DNA of 30,803 nt from a virus, in UHGV virus genome UHGV-0140727. One strand, given 5' to 3'. The translations under genes and the position numbers were made by a program. This document shows positions 4,078-20,455 of this stretch, one piece after another. The notes beneath the pieces were generated by a model that saw only the letters and a program-made list of their open reading frames with translations, did not search any database and was not told the DNA's origin. Within the stretch, counting starts at the first letter, position 1. Each line of letters opens with the position of its first letter.

Positions 4078-4677
4078 TTATTTTACCCCTTTGGAGTCTA
4101 CATCTAGATGGATAGTATATTCTGGTGGCTCTTGTCCTTCTTCATAAACCAACTCACCATCAACAATGACACGCTCAATAATACTTCCACGTTCATCTTT
4201 CAGGACTGAGTTTTTTACAAGAGTTACAACAAGAGGTGCAGAATTTTCGAAATCTGTATTGAGATAAGTATAGTCATTCGGGATAGCTCCAGTGTCTAAT
4301 ACTGTAGCTCCTGTTTCTTCAAGGATTAAATCTCTGACTGAACTCATCTCTAATCGTTGTTTAAGCTCAAGCATAATACTGTGAGCACCTTTACCATTCA
4401 CCGTAATTAATACAGGAATCTGAAAAGCAATTCTGTAGCAAACTACATCATCCTCAACAAACTTATCAAGAACCCAACCATAAGGTGTTGCAGCATCTTG
4501 ACAGTATACGGTAATAAATGGCTGGTCAGGTTTTAAACCTTTGTCATTTGAGTTATCAGAAGGGTAAGCTCTAATTACATTTGGTCTATTATTCTTATCA
4601 CGAGCTAATCTGTGACCAATAACATCCACTAAGGTTCTAACTAGACCTTTTTCAAGTTCTGCTGTTTCTAACTGCAT
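4078..4677 (-). CDS. Hypothetical structural protein (head-tail joining / tail completion region)
   Basis: 199-aa ORF between the capsid and sheath genes, overlapping the upstream ORF by 26 nt. Confidence 0.45.
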   Translation of the reverse strand: MQLETAELEKGLVRTLVDVIGHRLARDKNNRPNVIRAYPSDNSNDKGLKPDQPFITVYCQDAATPYGWVLDKFVEDDVVCYRIAFQIPVLITVNGKGAHSIMLELKQRLEMSSVRDLILEETGATVLDTGAIPNDYTYLNTDFENSAPLVVTLVKNSVLKDERGSIIERVIVDGELVYEEGQEPPEYTIHLDVDSKGVK

Positions 4678-5532: not shown

Positions 5533-5981
5533 TATTCATCTCGCTCGATAATAAATACGCCATTAACACGGTTGCAGTAATCTCTGCCTTCGTATCTGGC
5601 AGCATCACCATATTCTGTGTATTTCTTGACAGAGCAAGGATTCTGACGACGCATGTCAATATCACACTGATTAATACCACCTGCATAGGGTAGTCCTGAA
5701 ACAGAGCTTTTAACAAGGTCGTCATAAACAGCTTTCAGAGATTTGAATCTGGAAGAGTTACGTAAATAAACACCACCAACCTTCTCATCTCCCATCTTGG
5801 CTACTTGAAAGAGTAAATATTTAAGAGCTTTGATGGCTGCTTTCTTTTCATCCTTTCCAGATTCTAGATAGAACCACTCTAGCACAGACTGTTCAATAAG
5901 AATTTCATCATTATTGGTGTCTGTGCAGAGGATTCTTACTCTATCAAGAGGGTTATTGGCTGGGTCGCCTGTATAGCACAT
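5532..5981 (-). CDS. Hypothetical structural protein (head completion region)
   Basis: 149-aa ORF immediately downstream of the major capsid gene. Confidence 0.45.
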   Translation of the reverse strand: MCYTGDPANNPLDRVRILCTDTNNDEILIEQSVLEWFYLESGKDEKKAAIKALKYLLFQVAKMGDEKVGGVYLRNSSRFKSLKAVYDDLVKSSVSGLPYAGGINQCDIDMRRQNPCSVKKYTEYGDAARYEGRDYCNRVNGVFIIERDE

Positions 5982-6002
5982 TCATAACCCTCCTTAAGAA
6001 TA

Positions 6003-7109
6003 TTAGTCTGGTTTAGCGTCAGAGCGAACGTCTACCAGCAACTGAGGACGTGTGCAGTATGGCAGCATGTAAGAGTGAGCTTCAAAGTCAATACCTTCGT
6101 CACGGTCTTTTTCGTATTCGAATACGTACAGTTCCTGACCAAGTGTATTTGCATAACCCATCTTAGGACATGGACCATATGCCACTTCGAAGATGTTGTT
6201 TGCTTCACCCAGCATAGAAACGTTAGGGAAAGCGTGTCCTACACCAACCTCTGCACCAGCACCATCAATGCTCACCAGAGTATGAACCTTACCACGCTTG
6301 TCTTTGAACTTACCGTTGTACTGGACAAACTTAACACCACCGTAGTAGAAGGTGTTCATGTGAGCCTGAACGCCGTCAGTACCACCAGTTCTCAGAGAAC
6401 CAGTAATCTGTTGCCAAGCCAGCGGAGTCTGCTGTGCAAGATAAGCGTCACGAATCTTAGGATGCTTAACCAGTTTGCTGAAGAATACACGGTCAACAAC
6501 TACGTGAATTTCTTCACCGTTGATTACAGTGCCAGTCTTAGCTTCGTCTTCCATGTGCATACGCAGTTCTTCGATAGAAGCGTCGATGTCAGCATTAGGG
6601 TTGTCAAGGTCGAAGTAAACAGTCTTCTTCTCAACGTCGAACTGCTTGTACAGGTCAGCGTACAGAGTACCACGAGCATCAACAACTTTACCCTTCAGAG
6701 CTTGCATAAACAGGAACTCACGAGTAATATCGAACTTGGTACGAATCTTCATCAGCTTCTTAGCACGTACTACAGCTTCAGTAGTTAGTTCGTTTGCAGT
6801 GCCTGGCTGACGTACACCCTGAATTTCATCAGGAGTAATGCTTTCAACTTCTTTGAAGTACATCATTGGGAAGCTGATTTGACGAACACGCTCAGGTGCG
6901 CTAGTCTCTGCTTTACGGCTATCACGGTCTACCGCATCAAGCAAGCTAACATCCCAATCAGTCAAGTCCATAAGGAAAGTAGTTTGGGTGATTGGTGCTG
7001 AACGGAACAGACCTAAGTTGGAAATATACCCATAAGTATTTGGGATAGACTGGACTTCACCAGTCAGGTCAGCAAGGAAAAATCTGCTTTTTTCAGAATT
7101 AGTCAACAT
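6003..7109 (-). CDS. Major capsid protein (HK97/lambda-like, positional)
   Basis: 368-aa ORF directly downstream of the protease/scaffold and decoration-like genes, in the canonical terminase-portal-protease-capsid order. Size fits an HK97-fold capsid protein. Confidence 0.6.
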   Translation of the reverse strand: MLTNSEKSRFFLADLTGEVQSIPNTYGYISNLGLFRSAPITQTTFLMDLTDWDVSLLDAVDRDSRKAETSAPERVRQISFPMMYFKEVESITPDEIQGVRQPGTANELTTEAVVRAKKLMKIRTKFDITREFLFMQALKGKVVDARGTLYADLYKQFDVEKKTVYFDLDNPNADIDASIEELRMHMEDEAKTGTVINGEEIHVVVDRVFFSKLVKHPKIRDAYLAQQTPLAWQQITGSLRTGGTDGVQAHMNTFYYGGVKFVQYNGKFKDKRGKVHTLVSIDGAGAEVGVGHAFPNVSMLGEANNIFEVAYGPCPKMGYANTLGQELYVFEYEKDRDEGIDFEAHSYMLPYCTRPQLLVDVRSDAKPD

Positions 7110-17292: not shown

Positions 17293-17540
17293 TAATTATC
17301 TTTAAAGACTCTCTTAGAAAGCCCTTAGAGATGCCCACCTTATTAATCATACCGTGGGCTAGTACGCCAAATTCTTTGATGAGGGATTGGAAGACCTCAC
17401 TGGTGTTTAGCCTATCAAGCTACTGCCAGAAAAACATTGTCGTTTGCATTTATTTTAAATTTGCAAAATAGACGCTACGCAACGAAAACTAAGGTTACTA
17501 TAAAGTAGTCACATCTCAATGTCAACAACTTTATTGAAAT

Positions 17541-17615
17541 TGGTTGTAGGTGAGGGTATCGAACCCTCTTCTAACGGTTATCAGCCGTTTGCATTACCAT
17601 TTATGCTAACCCACA
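17541..17615 (-). tRNA. tRNA-Ile (anticodon GAU)
   Basis: Perfect D-stem GCAT/ATGC, perfect anticodon stem AACGG/CCGTT with loop CUGAUAA, T-arm GAGGG-TTCGATA-CCCTC, CCA encoded. Confidence 0.75.
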
Positions 17616-17617
17616 AT

Positions 17618-17694
17618 TGGAGGTTCAGATGGGAATCGAACCCACATTCATAGGGCTTATGAGACCCTTGCATTACCTTATCTGCGACTGAACC
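17618..17694 (-). tRNA. tRNA-Met (anticodon CAU; elongator or Ile2-type not distinguishable)
   Basis: Perfect acceptor (GGTTCAG/CTGAACC), anticodon stem AGGGT/GCCCT with loop CUCAUAA, T-loop TTCGATT, CCA encoded. G1-C72 pair argues against an initiator. Confidence 0.65.
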
Positions 17695-17698
17695 ATTT

Positions 17699-17774
17699 TG
17701 GTAGAAGTGGAGGGATTCGAACCCATCGCCTGTCAGATTAAAAGTCTGCCGCATCACCATTCTGCTACACTTCC
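17699..17774 (-). tRNA. tRNA-Lys (anticodon UUU)
   Basis: T-loop TTCGAAT, anticodon loop CUUUUAA, 7-bp acceptor, CCA encoded. Confidence 0.65.
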
Positions 17775-17916
17775 ATTAAATTATATTTGTAGATAAGCTA
17801 CCCAGACTTGCTTAAGGTCTGTAGCGATGTGTCTTTTCGGGTTAAATCTAGAATCTACCCTTCCACCTTTGTGGTCGCATACTCACAGGTAAGCTTAATA
17901 ACTTATCTACAAAGAT

Positions 17917-18057
17917 AATTACCAGACCGTTGTTTATCATCTTAAGTGCTACCATTACACCAACTCGACATCTGCCGAGTGAAGGAATCGAACCTTCGCC
18001 TTTTCTTTACCGGAGAAATAGATTGTTTAAGTTTTGCTGTAAACGGTCTTCTGTAAA
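17917..18057 (-). ncRNA. Structured RNA element A: conserved bulged closing helix enclosing a permuted tRNA-like module (Y-RNA-like candidate)
   Basis: Sense strand: 5' TTAC-AGA-AGACCGTT (plus 18040-18055) pairs with 3' AACGGTCT-G-GTAA (plus 17920-17932). Between them, in order: T-arm GAAGG-TTCGATT-CCTTC (plus 17971-17987), a 7-bp acceptor-like hairpin closed by a 4-nt loop (plus 17953-17970), and a D-arm-like GTGTAATGGTAGCAC (plus 17936-17952). No anticodon arm. Confidence 0.45.
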
Positions 18058-18063
18058 TTTGTT

Positions 18064-18145
18064 GAGCCAGACCAAGTTTTAAATTTTTCAAAATTAAATT
18101 GGCTTGAAAATATCATACGTACTTGCTGTATTTGGTCTTCTGCTC
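18064..18145 (-). ncRNA. Structured RNA element B (paralog of A, C, D)
   Basis: Same helix architecture with compensatory changes: outer GAGC/GCTC, 5' AGA opposite 3' G, inner AGACCAA/TTGGTCT, conserved TACAGCAA at the start of the enclosed loop. Confidence 0.4.
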
Positions 18146-18203
18146 CTTTAAAGGATACTCGTAAGAACCCTTTAAGGGAGGGGCTAAATAGCCCTCTCAA
18201 AAT

Positions 18204-18281
18204 TGGCGGTTACGAAGGGATTTGAACCCTCATCATCTCCCGTGACAGGGGAGTATTTTAACCAAATTAAACTACATAACC
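18204..18281 (-). tRNA. tRNA-Asp (anticodon GUC)
   Basis: Perfect anticodon stem CTCCC/GGGAG with loop CUGUCAC, T-loop TTCAAAT, acceptor with one G-U pair, CCA encoded. Confidence 0.75.
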
Positions 18282-18286
18282 TTTAT

Positions 18287-18374
18287 TGGTGTGCCGTGTA
18301 GGAGTCGAACCTACCGAGTCTCAATGACAAGGGATTTACAGTCCCCACCGCTACCATCTACGGGATAACGACAC
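18287..18374 (-). tRNA. tRNA-Tyr (anticodon GUA), type II
   Basis: 88 nt. Anticodon stem GGGGA/TCCCT with loop CUGUAAA, long variable arm, perfect T-stem GTAGG/CCTAC, 7-bp acceptor with one G-U pair, CCA encoded. Confidence 0.7.
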
Positions 18375-18383
18375 ATTTAAATT

Positions 18384-18460
18384 TGGCGGTTAGTCAGGGA
18401 TTCGAACCCTGTGCCATTCGCTTAACAGGCGACCGCACATACCTTATGTGCTTCCTAACC
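18384..18460 (-). tRNA. tRNA-Asn (anticodon GUU)
   Basis: Perfect D-stem GCAC/GTGC, anticodon loop CUGUUAA, perfect T-arm CAGGG-TTCGAAT-CCCTG, CCA encoded. Confidence 0.7.
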
Positions 18461-18470
18461 ATGTTTAGTA

Positions 18471-18543
18471 TTACCAGACCGTATCTTTCAATTTTTTCCG
18501 CTAAAAATTTAATAAATATTGCTGTAAACGGTCTTCTGTAAAT
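18471..18543 (-). ncRNA. Structured RNA element C (paralog of A, B, D)
   Basis: 5' strand is identical to element A over 24 nt (TTTACAGAAGACCGTTTACAGCAA). It pairs with 3' ACGGTCT-G-GTAA (plus 18471-18482): outer TTAC/GTAA, inner AGACCGT/ACGGTCT, enclosing about 40 nt. Confidence 0.4.
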
Positions 18544-18544
18544 T

Positions 18545-18621
18545 TGGAGGCGGGTGCAGGAGTCGAACCTGCCGATACCATGCTAATGAGACATGTGAGA
18601 CGCCCTTTCTCTATACCCGCA
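18545..18621 (-). tRNA. tRNA with anticodon CAU (Met, initiator or Ile2-type not resolved)
   Basis: Perfect T-arm GCAGG-TTCGACT-CCTGC, D-stem GAGA/TCTC, anticodon loop CUCAUUA (U at position 37 is unusual), 6-bp acceptor with a 1-72 mismatch, CCA encoded. Confidence 0.55.
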
Positions 18622-18629
18622 ATTCTTAA

Positions 18630-18709
18630 TGACCAGACCAAATCTCTTCTATGTCCGATTTACCTTCAGATGAATAAGATTAAGTTTGCTGTAATTGGTC
18701 TTCTGTCAA
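18630..18709 (-). ncRNA. Structured RNA element D (paralog of A, B, C)
   Basis: Outer helix TGAC/GTCA, 5' AGA opposite 3' G, inner AGACCAA/TTGGTCT, conserved TACAGCAA at loop start, enclosing about 50 nt. Confidence 0.4.
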
Positions 18710-18712
18710 AAC

Positions 18713-18790
18713 TGGCGTTCCAGAAGGGATTTGAACCCTCAAATATCCACTTTGAAAGAGTGGTGACTTTACCATTTTGTCTACTGGAAC
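18713..18790 (-). tRNA. tRNA-Glu (anticodon UUC)
   Basis: Perfect acceptor (GTTCCAG/CTGGAAC), perfect anticodon stem CCACT/AGTGG with loop CUUUCAA, T-loop TTCAAAT, CCA encoded. Confidence 0.75.
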
Positions 18791-18797
18791 ATTAATT

Positions 18798-18874
18798 TGG
18801 TCTCTGTTGGAGGACTTGAACCTCCGGCCTTACCGCCCCAAACGGAACGCTCTACCAAGCTGAGCTAAACAGAG
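18798..18874 (-). tRNA. tRNA-Pro (anticodon UGG)
   Basis: Perfect acceptor (CTCTGTT/AACAGAG), perfect D-stem GCTC/GAGC, perfect T-arm GGAGG-TTCAAGT-CCTCC, anticodon loop UUUGGGG with G37, CCA encoded. Confidence 0.7.
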
Positions 18875-19039
18875 ATAAACTTTTCAAACTCTATGTAACC
18901 ACTTTAACATTATTTTTTAGTGATTGTCAAGAACTTTTTTAAAATATTTTTCAGTATCTTAGAAAAGCTCTCATTTCGTTTCTATGTAGAACATATTAAA
19001 GGGTATTAAACACATTGTCAATACCCTTTTTAAAACTTT

Positions 19040-20455
19040 TTACCAGATATAACGGTCAATCATTACTGCTTTGAGCATTACGCTGATTGGGTCAAACTTC
19101 TCACCACCAAGCAGAGCTTTTAAAGTGGCTGGAGAGAAACCAGATACCATTGCTACACCGTTATCCTTAACAGATACTTCGCAAGTACCGTTACGGTTTG
19201 CTAAGTACCAGAATACCAGTTGTGGCATTTCGTATCCAGCTTTTTTGTACTTACTCTGGATTGCTTCAAAGTTTGTACGACCGTTAGCTCCATCAACCTG
19301 ATTGAACTCCATATCGGAGAAGATGATAAGCTTACTTGGCATATCTTTCTGAGTCAAGTTGTTTCTTTTACCTGTCTCAAGAATACGGTCAAAAGCTGCT
19401 TGTAAGTTAGTTGAGCCATATTCAACGTGTCGCATCACCTGACGATGACGGTTTCGTAAATCACCACTCAGTTCGATGAAGTGAGGGTTTGTTGAATAAA
19501 CCATTAACTCATTCTTAAAGCAACCTGTATTGCGTTCTGCTACATACAAGGCAAGTGATACACCAATATCCAGAGCAGTAATGGAGCCAAAATTCACCCA
19601 AGACATTGAACTTGATACATCAGACATACACAAGATGTTTTCACCTTCTGCCATCCAGTTTGGTAGTGCTTTCCACTGCTCATTAGCAACATCTGCATTA
19701 CCATACTTGACAGATTTAATCACATCGTATGGGTAAACAGCACCAGCGTTAATCTTAGTCTCACCTTTTGATAAGGACTCGATGTAAGCTTTGTAACGCT
19801 CTCCATCTTTACGGTTAAACAGTTTTTGGTAACGTGCAGCAGCAAGTGAAGGAATCTTACTGTAGTCAATCTTACCAAACTCATTAGCAGAGATTTTTTG
19901 CTCAACTGTATCAGATAGTGCAGACAACAGTGTGCGGTACTCTTTCTCACTCAAGTTGGCAAACTTGCAGAAACGTTTTACAAACTGCTTATGACGTGGT
20001 TTGACTCGTGGTAACCACTTAGCCGCCAAACCTGCTGTTGCAGGGTCTAGTAATGCTGCTTCTAAATGTTTGAAGGCATCTGTCTCGAAACGAGTACCTA
20101 CGAAGATTTTGAAGTCATCAAAACGACCAAGTTCTGCAATCTTATCCATAATGCGAAGAACCTGCGTAGACTCTAAAACTTTGTCTTCAATTGCTTGAAG
20201 CAAAACAGTTCTGAAGGCTTTACGCTCACCCATACCTTCTCGTACATCTCGCATATGAAGCAAAATACGAACTGCAACATCAACATCCTCACGCAAAGCT
20301 TTGTAGAACAGGTCTGGTAAGATTTCTACGTTGCTACGGCTTGAACCAGCAGCTTTGTAAAAGTCTACAAGAGCAGACATTGATGAAGTATGGTTTACAG
20401 CACCATTTTCAGTTCGACCTGCATGAAGGTACGCATGTTTAAATAATTCGCTCAT
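19040..20455 (-). CDS. vWA-domain protein with a helical N-terminal domain; Ro60/Rsr-like (TROVE + vWA) architecture, DUF2828-like
   Basis: 471-aa ORF. The C-terminal half has the vWA MIDAS signature in order: DxSxS (LCMSDVSSSMS), a downstream GSTN threonine, and LIIFSDME. The N-terminal ~250 aa is predicted helical. The TROVE assignment is inference from architecture and context, not from a search. Confidence 0.55.
   Translation of the reverse strand: MSELFKHAYLHAGRTENGAVNHTSSMSALVDFYKAAGSSRSNVEILPDLFYKALREDVDVAVRILLHMRDVREGMGERKAFRTVLLQAIEDKVLESTQVLRIMDKIAELGRFDDFKIFVGTRFETDAFKHLEAALLDPATAGLAAKWLPRVKPRHKQFVKRFCKFANLSEKEYRTLLSALSDTVEQKISANEFGKIDYSKIPSLAAARYQKLFNRKDGERYKAYIESLSKGETKINAGAVYPYDVIKSVKYGNADVANEQWKALPNWMAEGENILCMSDVSSSMSWVNFGSITALDIGVSLALYVAERNTGCFKNELMVYSTNPHFIELSGDLRNRHRQVMRHVEYGSTNLQAAFDRILETGKRNNLTQKDMPSKLIIFSDMEFNQVDGANGRTNFEAIQSKYKKAGYEMPQLVFWYLANRNGTCEVSVKDNGVAMVSGFSPATLKALLGGEKFDPISVMLKAVMIDRYIW

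Follow-up and report, generated by a model that had tools for sequence, protein, structure and literature searches.

Covarying small RNA elements accompany a Ro60-like protein gene across distant phage lineages

Four hairpin-closed elements were analyzed in the virus genome UHGV-0140727, a stretch of 30,803 nucleotides that is referred to as the window below. They lie on the minus strand within a cluster of 25 tRNA genes, downstream of a gene for a 471-amino-acid protein. Their helices probably close four small non-coding RNAs of the tRNA-cluster transcript, which would represent a phage branch of the Y RNA class and be read by the Ro60-like ring protein encoded upstream. The RNA structure is conserved and covaries, the elements keep strictly to the neighbourhood and the strand of the protein gene in phage lineages that are distant from each other, the protein has the Ro60 fold and one of the elements has a tRNA-like architecture. 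We infer the link between protein and RNAs because of the strict co-location, the Ro60 fold and the precedent of Y RNAs. The window is 98.6% identical to Felixounavirus LF82P3 and 98.4% identical to phage adrianh over the region 17400-19100 and, judged by its sequence, belongs to a Felixounavirus, i.e. a Felix O1-like Escherichia/Salmonella myovirus.

Four RNA elements in the tRNA cluster

The pattern AGAAGACCNNNTACAGCAA was found exactly four times in the window, always on the minus strand, while 0.03 copies were expected by chance and none of 100 shuffled sequences reached four. All four copies lie between positions 17917 and 18709, where the original prediction had placed four related RNA helices, and a GGTCTGG partner follows downstream of every one of them. 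The elements and the tRNA genes around them are:

18056-17919, minus strand: element A, long form, 138 nt, TTAC-AGA-AGACCGTT-TACAGCAA...AACGGTCT-G-GTAA, enclosing a permuted tRNA-like domain
18145-18064, minus strand: element B, short form, 82 nt, GAGC-AGA-AGACCAA-ATACAGCAA...TTGGTCT-G-GCTC
18541-18471, minus strand: element C, short form, 71 nt, TTAC-AGA-AGACCGT-TTACAGCAA...ACGGTCT-G-GTAA
18708-18630, minus strand: element D, short form, 79 nt, TGAC-AGA-AGACCAA-TTACAGCAA...TTGGTCT-G-GTCA
18204..18874, minus strand: tRNA genes Pro, Glu, Met, Asn, Tyr and Asp, flanking and punctuating elements D and C

Direct reading of the sequence bore out the stem anatomy that had been described, namely an outer stem of TTAC/GTAA, GAGC/GCTC or TGAC/GTCA, an AGA opposite a G, an inner stem of AGACCGT(T) or AGACCAA with its complement and then TACAGCAA, with all stem differences between the copies being compensated. 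Read from the 5' side, element B continues as AGACCAA-AT-ACAGCAA into a 47-nt loop, element C as AGACCGT-TT-ACAGCAA into a 36-nt loop and element D as AGACCAA-TT-ACAGCAA into an A-rich loop of 44 nt. Elements D and C are separated from their adjoining tRNAs by 3-10 nt; element D starts 4 nt past tRNA-Glu and ends 8 nt short of tRNA-Met, and element C sits between tRNA-Met and tRNA-Asn. All four copies are located among the tRNAs downstream of the Ro-like gene and none precedes a coding sequence. Public records carry no annotation at these positions, and a relaxed scan of the whole window yielded no further convincing copy.

The minimum-free-energy fold of each copy alone consisted of the 4-bp stem, the 3x1 internal loop and the 7-8-bp stem, which is the claimed helix in all four cases. 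The thermodynamic z-scores were modest (-0.8 to -1.8), so that the support for these structures comes from covariation and not from stability, which alone would have missed the elements. Among orthologous copies in Felixounavirus genomes, the variants included a genuine double compensation, in which TTAC/GTAA became TTGC/GCAA, as well as three changes compatible with wobble pairing and a single break.

In the IMG/VR Felixounavirus contigs (L003-L067), the exact pattern was present in two to four copies, with differences between closely related genomes and copy B or C sometimes missing. Their loop lengths vary by a few to approximately 10 nt, while the closing module is constant.

A Ro60-like ring protein is encoded directly upstream

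The gene that directly precedes the RNA cluster encodes the proposed partner of the elements:

[quoted passage not shown]

Fold comparison revealed the architecture of Ro60, a helical-repeat ring closed by a vWA domain. This comparison was needed because homology to solved structures was either not found or insignificant at the sequence level: phmmer returned nothing against solved structures for the 471-aa protein, and in a profile search against the Protein Data Bank (PDB), Ro60 appeared with no better than E=0.43, the match being confined to the vWA part. The only Pfam matches of the protein are DUF2828 and DUF7788. The MIDAS residues D279, S281, S283, T349 and D381 (DxSxS...T...D) are invariant in 36 homologues, nine of which match Pfam vWA_Ro60 (best E 4.7e-4). 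The protein family occurs in 710 cultured-phage records and is annotated as 'Ro-like RNA binding protein', in mycobacteriophages, or as 'RNA-binding protein'; its Ro-likeness is already recognised at the level of annotation.

In many phages the gene is found in or beside tRNA clusters. In Listeria phage LMTA-34 (L150), a match to the ROOL RNA (88.5 bits, gathering score 99.1) lies approximately 1 kb upstream of the Ro-like gene, and an RtcB-type 'tRNA splicing ligase' is encoded downstream of it with a RaiA-like gene and tRNAs in between (1428-1979, 5808-7019), which makes this locus a dense RNA-biology neighbourhood. In mycobacteriophage LeBron, overexpression of the homologous gp53 was reported to be toxic, as was that of an RNA ligase and of a polynucleotide kinase (PMC13148394). 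Such genomic surroundings hint at a role in the surveillance or repair of RNA. An uncultured phage contig that carries both the Ro-like gene and elements additionally contains a group I intron (L082, 11720-11946; Rfam 71.5 bits, above threshold).

The elements belong to a widespread family that tracks the gene

A family sample of 75 viral contigs was collected solely through the protein (39-47% identity). Elements were defined by a fixed register of a 7-nt stem, 2 nt and WCNGCAA, and a perfect Watson-Crick partner was required within 280 nt. The motif TACAGCAA was four times commoner on the gene strand than on the opposite strand (72 versus 18) and clustered right beside the gene. For perfect-helix elements the asymmetry was stronger: the gene strand had 107, of which 100 precede a G, the opposite strand had 12 with a single trailing G, and the exact ACAGCAA motif with a perfect helix was detected 51 times on the gene strand and never on the other. 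At least one element was present in 57 of the 75 loci, 91 of the 107 elements were located at most 1.5 kb from the gene, and their variable stems comprised 60 different sequences. Loop lengths range from 9 to 270 nt across the family. An independent sample of 80 loci from bacterial genome assemblies replicated these results with 116 elements (99 with the G) versus 13 (3 with the G) and 57 positive loci.

The reciprocal search started from the RNA. Of 31 contig stretches that had a proper hairpin, 25 also had a Ro-like gene; the other six were short, and five of them came from contigs of Felixounavirus size. Relatives that show the motif without a complementary partner had been named as possible counter-evidence to an RNA helix. 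Such bare 16-nt matches accounted for 36 of the 67 hits of the exact-motif scan in viral contigs, but none of these 36 stretches contained a Ro-like gene, and they were discarded as chance or coding occurrences.

Elements adjoining the gene were identified in cultured phages of diverse hosts, with three copies in Mycobacterium phage Lewan, downstream of the annotated 'Ro-like RNA binding protein', three in Listeria LMTA-34, two in Campylobacter F358, five in Klebsiella KP13-26, four in Citrobacter Mordin and three in Staphylococcus S-CoN_Ph16. The sole exception among the cultured phages examined was Vibrio VH7D, in which the scan gave no convincing copy.

The module common to the family reads AA, [A/U]G-N5, N-U, WCNGCAA ... 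N5-C[U/A], G. The two purines before the stem are AA in the family and GA in the phage of the window, the stem spans 7-9 bp, and its first pairs are A-U and G-C while the remaining pairs vary freely. A gapless alignment of the 5' and 3' segments of 82 sequences contained at least three standard pair types at each of the seven stem pairs and mostly four at the five variable positions (3-4 Watson-Crick types at the variable positions of the core), as in one variable position with 29 GC, 26 AU, 16 CG and 10 UA pairs. The covariation score was 0.70 in the true register and 0.10-0.16 in slid registers. Covariation in paralogues, in Felixounavirus orthologues and in the deep family, together with the bias in strand and location, strongly supports the selection on RNA structure that had been proposed from the four copies.

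The outer 4-bp stem and the 3x1 loop behaved differently. Outside the Ounavirinae, no excess of pairing over shuffled sequences was observed for them in any of 20 registers, and the outer stem was 49% paired in the family alignment. Based on these two results, the outer stem with its AGA/G loop was rejected as a family-wide feature; it is a feature of the Ounavirinae lineage and might mark the ends that processing leaves in a transcript punctuated by tRNAs. The ACAGCAA motif itself appears to be kept single-stranded, as its complements are depleted inside the elements (3 observed versus 9.9 expected) and short loops are A-rich and G-poor. A role of ACAGCAA as antisense or seed sequence was considered and dismissed, given this depletion and the absence of the complement from the transcribed strand of the window.

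Contigs from bacterial assemblies that carry both protein and elements (L156-L235) stem mostly from Clostridia and from other gut metagenome-assembled genomes. Some of these contigs measure 0.4-2.4 Mb, and they are likely to represent prophages. In Clostridia-type loci the stem usually starts with AAG, not AGG. In Staphylococcus phage S-CoN_Ph16 (L154), an annotated 29-aa 'hypothetical protein' (4471-4560) coincides with the element at 4484-4545, and this open reading frame (ORF) is probably a mis-annotated non-coding RNA.

The long form contains a permuted tRNA-like domain

The minimum-free-energy fold of element A encloses a multi-way junction with the following parts:

17941..18031, minus strand: tRNA-like domain of element A
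18031-18028 with 17944-17941, minus strand: anticodon-stem-like CUUA/UAAG
18018-18002, minus strand: V-like hairpin
17997-17981, minus strand: T-arm GAAGG-UUCGAUU-CCUUC
17980-17963, minus strand: closed 7-bp acceptor-like hairpin ACUCGGC-AGAU-GUCGAGU with the loop AGAU
17960-17946, minus strand: D-arm GUGU-AAUGGUA-GCAC, preceded by a U8-like U

The Rfam tRNA model gave a partial match to element A that covers the V and T arms and, with 22 bits, stays under the threshold of 29. Element A is not a tRNA: ARAGORN remained silent, there is no anticodon loop and the acceptor-like stem is closed by AGAU. It does have the permuted organization of YrlA, with a T-arm, a loop-closed acceptor-like stem and a D-arm, and the closing helix continues from the position of the anticodon stem. 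Elements B-D lack the tRNA-like domain. In the family, a perfect T-arm was present in 21 of 76 long elements and in one of 58 short elements. A strict parse, which demanded a T-arm, next to it a closed hairpin of 7-8 bp, then a U and a D-arm with GG, identified 13 elements and none in 2680 shuffled sequences, and the acceptor-like stems of all 13 are different. Explicit parsing was used to compare the long forms, because the quality of the MAFFT alignment around the acceptor and 3' parts was too low for counting pairs.

The comparison with canonical YrlA rests on the Rfam model (RF02553). This model aligned end-to-end to the tRNA-like half of the KP13-26 long forms (40.1 and 32.5 bits) and matched three uncultured phages with 39.2, 38.9 and 36.7 bits. 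No counterpart of its 5' GCGAAUG segment, the proposed Rsr-binding motif, was found in the phage long forms, and the short forms gave no match in Rfam.

Relation to known Ro60-Y RNA systems

The architecture of YrlA and its pairing with Ro60 were described by Chen et al. 2014 (PMC4201824), and phage Ro60 has been reported to bind phage Y-like RNAs (PMC12135203). Phages with known Ro60-Y RNA pairs include TROVE-annotated mycobacteriophages such as ET08, CcrColossus, Bacillus phage G and Thermus phiLo (PMC4201824, PMC12135203). As with YrlA/YrlB and Rsr of Salmonella Typhimurium and Mycobacterium smegmatis (PMC4201824), several small RNAs with pairing 5' and 3' ends adjoin the gene for a Ro60-type ring protein. 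The long form shares with YrlA the permuted order of anticodon-like stem, V, T-arm, closed acceptor-like stem and D-arm, and shorter forms without the domain occur alongside it. In contrast to YrlA/YrlB, the phage closing module consists of a 7-bp variable stem, a single-stranded (U)WCNGCAA and a flanking AA...G instead of GNCGAA(N)G; the phage protein is DUF2828/DUF7788 by sequence and not Pfam TROVE, and the RNAs sit in a phage tRNA cluster. The system also differs from phiRo60 with Yrl1/Yrl2 of Thermus phage phiLo (PMC12135203) and from ET08 (PMC4201824), whose proteins are TROVE-annotated and whose RNAs were found through the CGAA motif. Furthermore, the mycobacteriophages of the present family have genomes of 70-76 kb, compared with the 155-kb ET08 type. 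The ACAGCAA module is not described in PMC12135203 or PMC4201824.

The comparison with vertebrate Y RNAs is less favorable. Unlike the Y RNAs bound by Xenopus Ro60 (1YVP), the phage RNAs do not contain the GGUCCGA/UUGACC helix, the asymmetric loop is not kept in the wider family and there is no Pol III or La context. The original prediction had called a bulged helix a hallmark of Ro60-binding sites in Y RNAs. The idea of a relation to Ro60 and Y RNAs gained support from the Ro60-fold gene upstream and the YrlA-type domain of element A, neither of which had been part of that argument. The bulged helix is not general and the canonical Ro-binding sequence is absent, and therefore the connection of these RNAs with Ro does not come from a likeness to the vertebrate Ro site.

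The tRNA cluster of phage T4 holds small non-tRNA RNAs. We propose that the phage elements resemble these RNAs and tmRNA as small stable RNAs that would be co-transcribed and processed with phage tRNAs and that mimic a T-arm. Unlike tmRNA, they possess neither an mRNA-like segment nor an open acceptor end, and Rfam tmRNA matches were negligible.

Rfam 15 and the searchable literature contained no description of the RNA family, its distinct recognition module or its arrangement in multiple copies, of its occurrence in Felix O1-like and many other phages or of its link to DUF2828/DUF7788, with the supplementary tables of Chen et al., which possibly list related phage RNAs, lying outside this comparison. 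The RNA family is widespread and apparently undescribed.

A proposed ribonucleoprotein and its alternatives

Two promoter-like sites between the Ro-like gene and the cluster are candidate starts of the element-bearing transcript, as matches to a consensus, which is not evidence of function:

19021-18993 and 18930-18901 (region 18901..19021), minus strand: two sigma-70-like promoter matches

Minus-strand transcription of the cluster would begin at these sites, and tRNA end-processing by RNase P and tRNA 3' processing would then free the elements. Each RNA would offer its stem, the single-stranded (U)ACAGCAA and the 3' G to the Ro60-like ring protein (20455-19040). By analogy with Ro60-Y RNA-PNPase particles and with YrlA as a substrate of tRNA enzymes, the tRNA-like end of element A may engage a second partner; in bacterial Ro60 particles the tRNA-like domain forms the RNA's effector or tether side, and elements B-D would be analogous to YrlB. 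During infection, such a particle could act on RNA either in the surveillance or repair of tRNAs and other structured RNAs, or by recruiting a host exoribonuclease as in Ro60-Y RNA-PNPase.

Several observations weigh against placing the elements with the Y RNAs. The strict element was not seen in approximately a quarter of the protein-bearing loci, and the bulged outer helix is not kept family-wide. The canonical Ro-binding sequences GGUCCGA, GNCGAA(N)G and CGAA are absent from the four copies and from the family consensus. Pfam TROVE matched none of the 36 homologues at E<=10. The scores of the YrlA relatives (32-40 bits) are all below the curated gathering threshold of 69 bits, and the YrlA model gave no match to element A of the window even at E<=10. 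Binding of the RNAs by the protein is suggested by co-location and analogy. Selection by perfect pairing also makes 'percent paired' circular for the seven core pairs, and the non-circular evidence is the asymmetry in strand, position and trailing G. In summary, the elements fail to be filed as canonical Y RNAs or YrlA on the Ro-binding motif and the curated Rfam score, while they have the terminal stem, a closing helix present in all four copies that covaries across the family, the tRNA-like domain and the adjacency to a Ro60-fold gene, both in the window and across the family.

Other explanations were weighed against these data. The RNAs could mainly target host factors, as decoys or sponges for Rsr/Ro60, RNase P, tRNA-modifying enzymes or tRNA-targeting defence nucleases. 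Element A mimics a tRNA with a 7-bp acceptor-like stem, the M. smegmatis YrlA with its 7-bp stem is cut by RNase P and CCA-tailed, and Salmonella hosts encode Rsr with YrlA/YrlB (PMC4201824). This is unlikely to be their principal role, given that the module common to long and short forms differs from the bacterial Rsr motif, that the Rfam YrlA model built on bacterial sequences misses element A, and that a phage-encoded partner is favoured by the strict linkage with the Ro-like gene of the phage itself, in hosts that mostly lack Rsr; for the tRNA-like end, both ideas can hold. We consider it quite improbable that the hairpins serve the tRNA operon as signals for processing or stability, such as nuclease entry or stop sites or spacers, without a specific relation to the Ro-like protein. 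The distance of 3-10 nt to tRNA ends in the window and the Ounavirinae-specific outer stem, which could set processed termini, would fit such signals. Nevertheless, the module occurs beside the gene without an adjacent tRNA in Lewan (in the gap downstream of the gene) and in the Staphylococcus phage, it tracks the gene and not tRNAs in 57 of 75 and 57 of 80 loci, and a conserved 7-nt single-stranded motif with an embedded tRNA mimic exceeds the needs of a processing hairpin.

The elements might also be cis-acting operators through which the Ro-like protein controls the translation of its own or neighbouring mRNAs. In some distant phages, very short copies (loop 9-14 nt) end 12-60 nt before the start codon of the gene, and the trailing G of a short copy runs into a GGAGG ribosome-binding site (L078 1764-1795, L080 2859-2890, L114 5907-5943; L151 2895-2973). 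These start-codon-proximal copies suggest, from their placement, translational autoregulation by the Ro-like protein in some distant phages. As an account of the elements in place of stand-alone RNAs it is very unlikely, since no copy in the window precedes the Ro-like gene or any other coding sequence, and a pure operator is hard to reconcile with one to six copies at each locus and with long forms that are tRNA-like. Least credible, with hardly any probability left, is that the repeats act as DNA, as promoters or as recombination or homing-endonuclease sites, or that element A is a permuted or decayed tRNA gene. An HNH endonuclease ORF in the same tRNA cluster, one weak promoter-like match overlapping element C and the tRNA parts of element A speak for it. 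The original prediction had named a DNA-level site as a possible refutation, and this is opposed by changes that preserve pairing and not sequence, a covariation that largely refutes it, and by the extreme strand bias of 51 versus 0 for the exact motif with a perfect helix; without an anticodon loop and with a loop-closed acceptor stem, element A cannot be a decoding tRNA. None of these alternatives covers covariation, strand specificity, tRNA-independent linkage to the gene and the embedded tRNA mimic together.

Other features of the tRNA cluster

The 144-nt gap between element A and tRNA-Lys (17775-17918, minus strand) folds with -40.4 kcal/mol (z = -4.16, none of 200 shuffled sequences as stable) and is closed by a helix of approximately 17 bp. 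It is kept in Citrobacter phage Mordin (L153 7107-7258), where the closing helix GTAG/CTAC is changed to GCAG/CTGC in a compensated manner. The gap contains a small element-like hairpin, CAGAC-CUUAAGCAA-GUCUG, gave no match in Rfam and is probably another, different small RNA. Between tRNA-Asp and element B, the segment 18146-18203 (minus strand) forms two adjacent hairpins (-19.9 kcal/mol, z = -2.95); a typical terminator was ruled out, as no T-run follows them. The HNH endonuclease ORF (17247-16849, minus strand; PHROG 2255) is located within the tRNA cluster. An Rfam tRNA match at 17292-17214 (31.7 bits versus a threshold of 29), which was not called by ARAGORN, overlaps the start of this ORF. 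A match to permuted tmRNA at 17598-17415 was weak and below threshold (32.5 bits versus 47).

Implications for phage RNA biology

Ro60-Y RNA particles, which are a major autoantigen, have been conserved all the way from bacteria to humans, yet their mechanisms are known from few systems. The assignment proposed here would, if true, add a large RNA family. This family is found in over 700 genomes of cultured phages as well as in numerous prophage-like loci. It covers Felix O1-like coliphages, Salmonella phages, Listeria phages of the A511/P100 type, Campylobacter, Staphylococcus and Enterococcus phages, KVP40-like Vibrio phages and mycobacteriophages of cluster-L size. It also accounts for gaps without annotation in the tRNA clusters of phages, some of these gaps currently being annotated as tiny ORFs, and offers a function-level hypothesis for the two Pfam 'domains of unknown function' DUF2828 and DUF7788.

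A broader proposal is put forward tentatively, as a possibility that we regard as the less probable outcome. The DUF2828/DUF7788 proteins and the ACAGCAA-hairpin RNAs may constitute a distinct and very widespread ribonucleoprotein system of phages and prophages, a sister branch of Ro60-Y RNA with its own RNA recognition code. Each genome would supply one to six RNAs as partners, of which one or two mimic tRNAs. The system would serve to protect or mend the phage's pool of tRNAs and other RNAs, or to divert the RNA decay of the host and defences that target tRNAs during infection, and the uncharacterised DUF2828 proteins outside phages would then be Ro-like RNA-binding proteins as well. A distinct module of variable stem and ACAGCAA would show how a Ro-like ring can change its RNA code, and genetically tractable E. 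coli and Salmonella phages provide systems for asking what a Ro-type particle does during infection.

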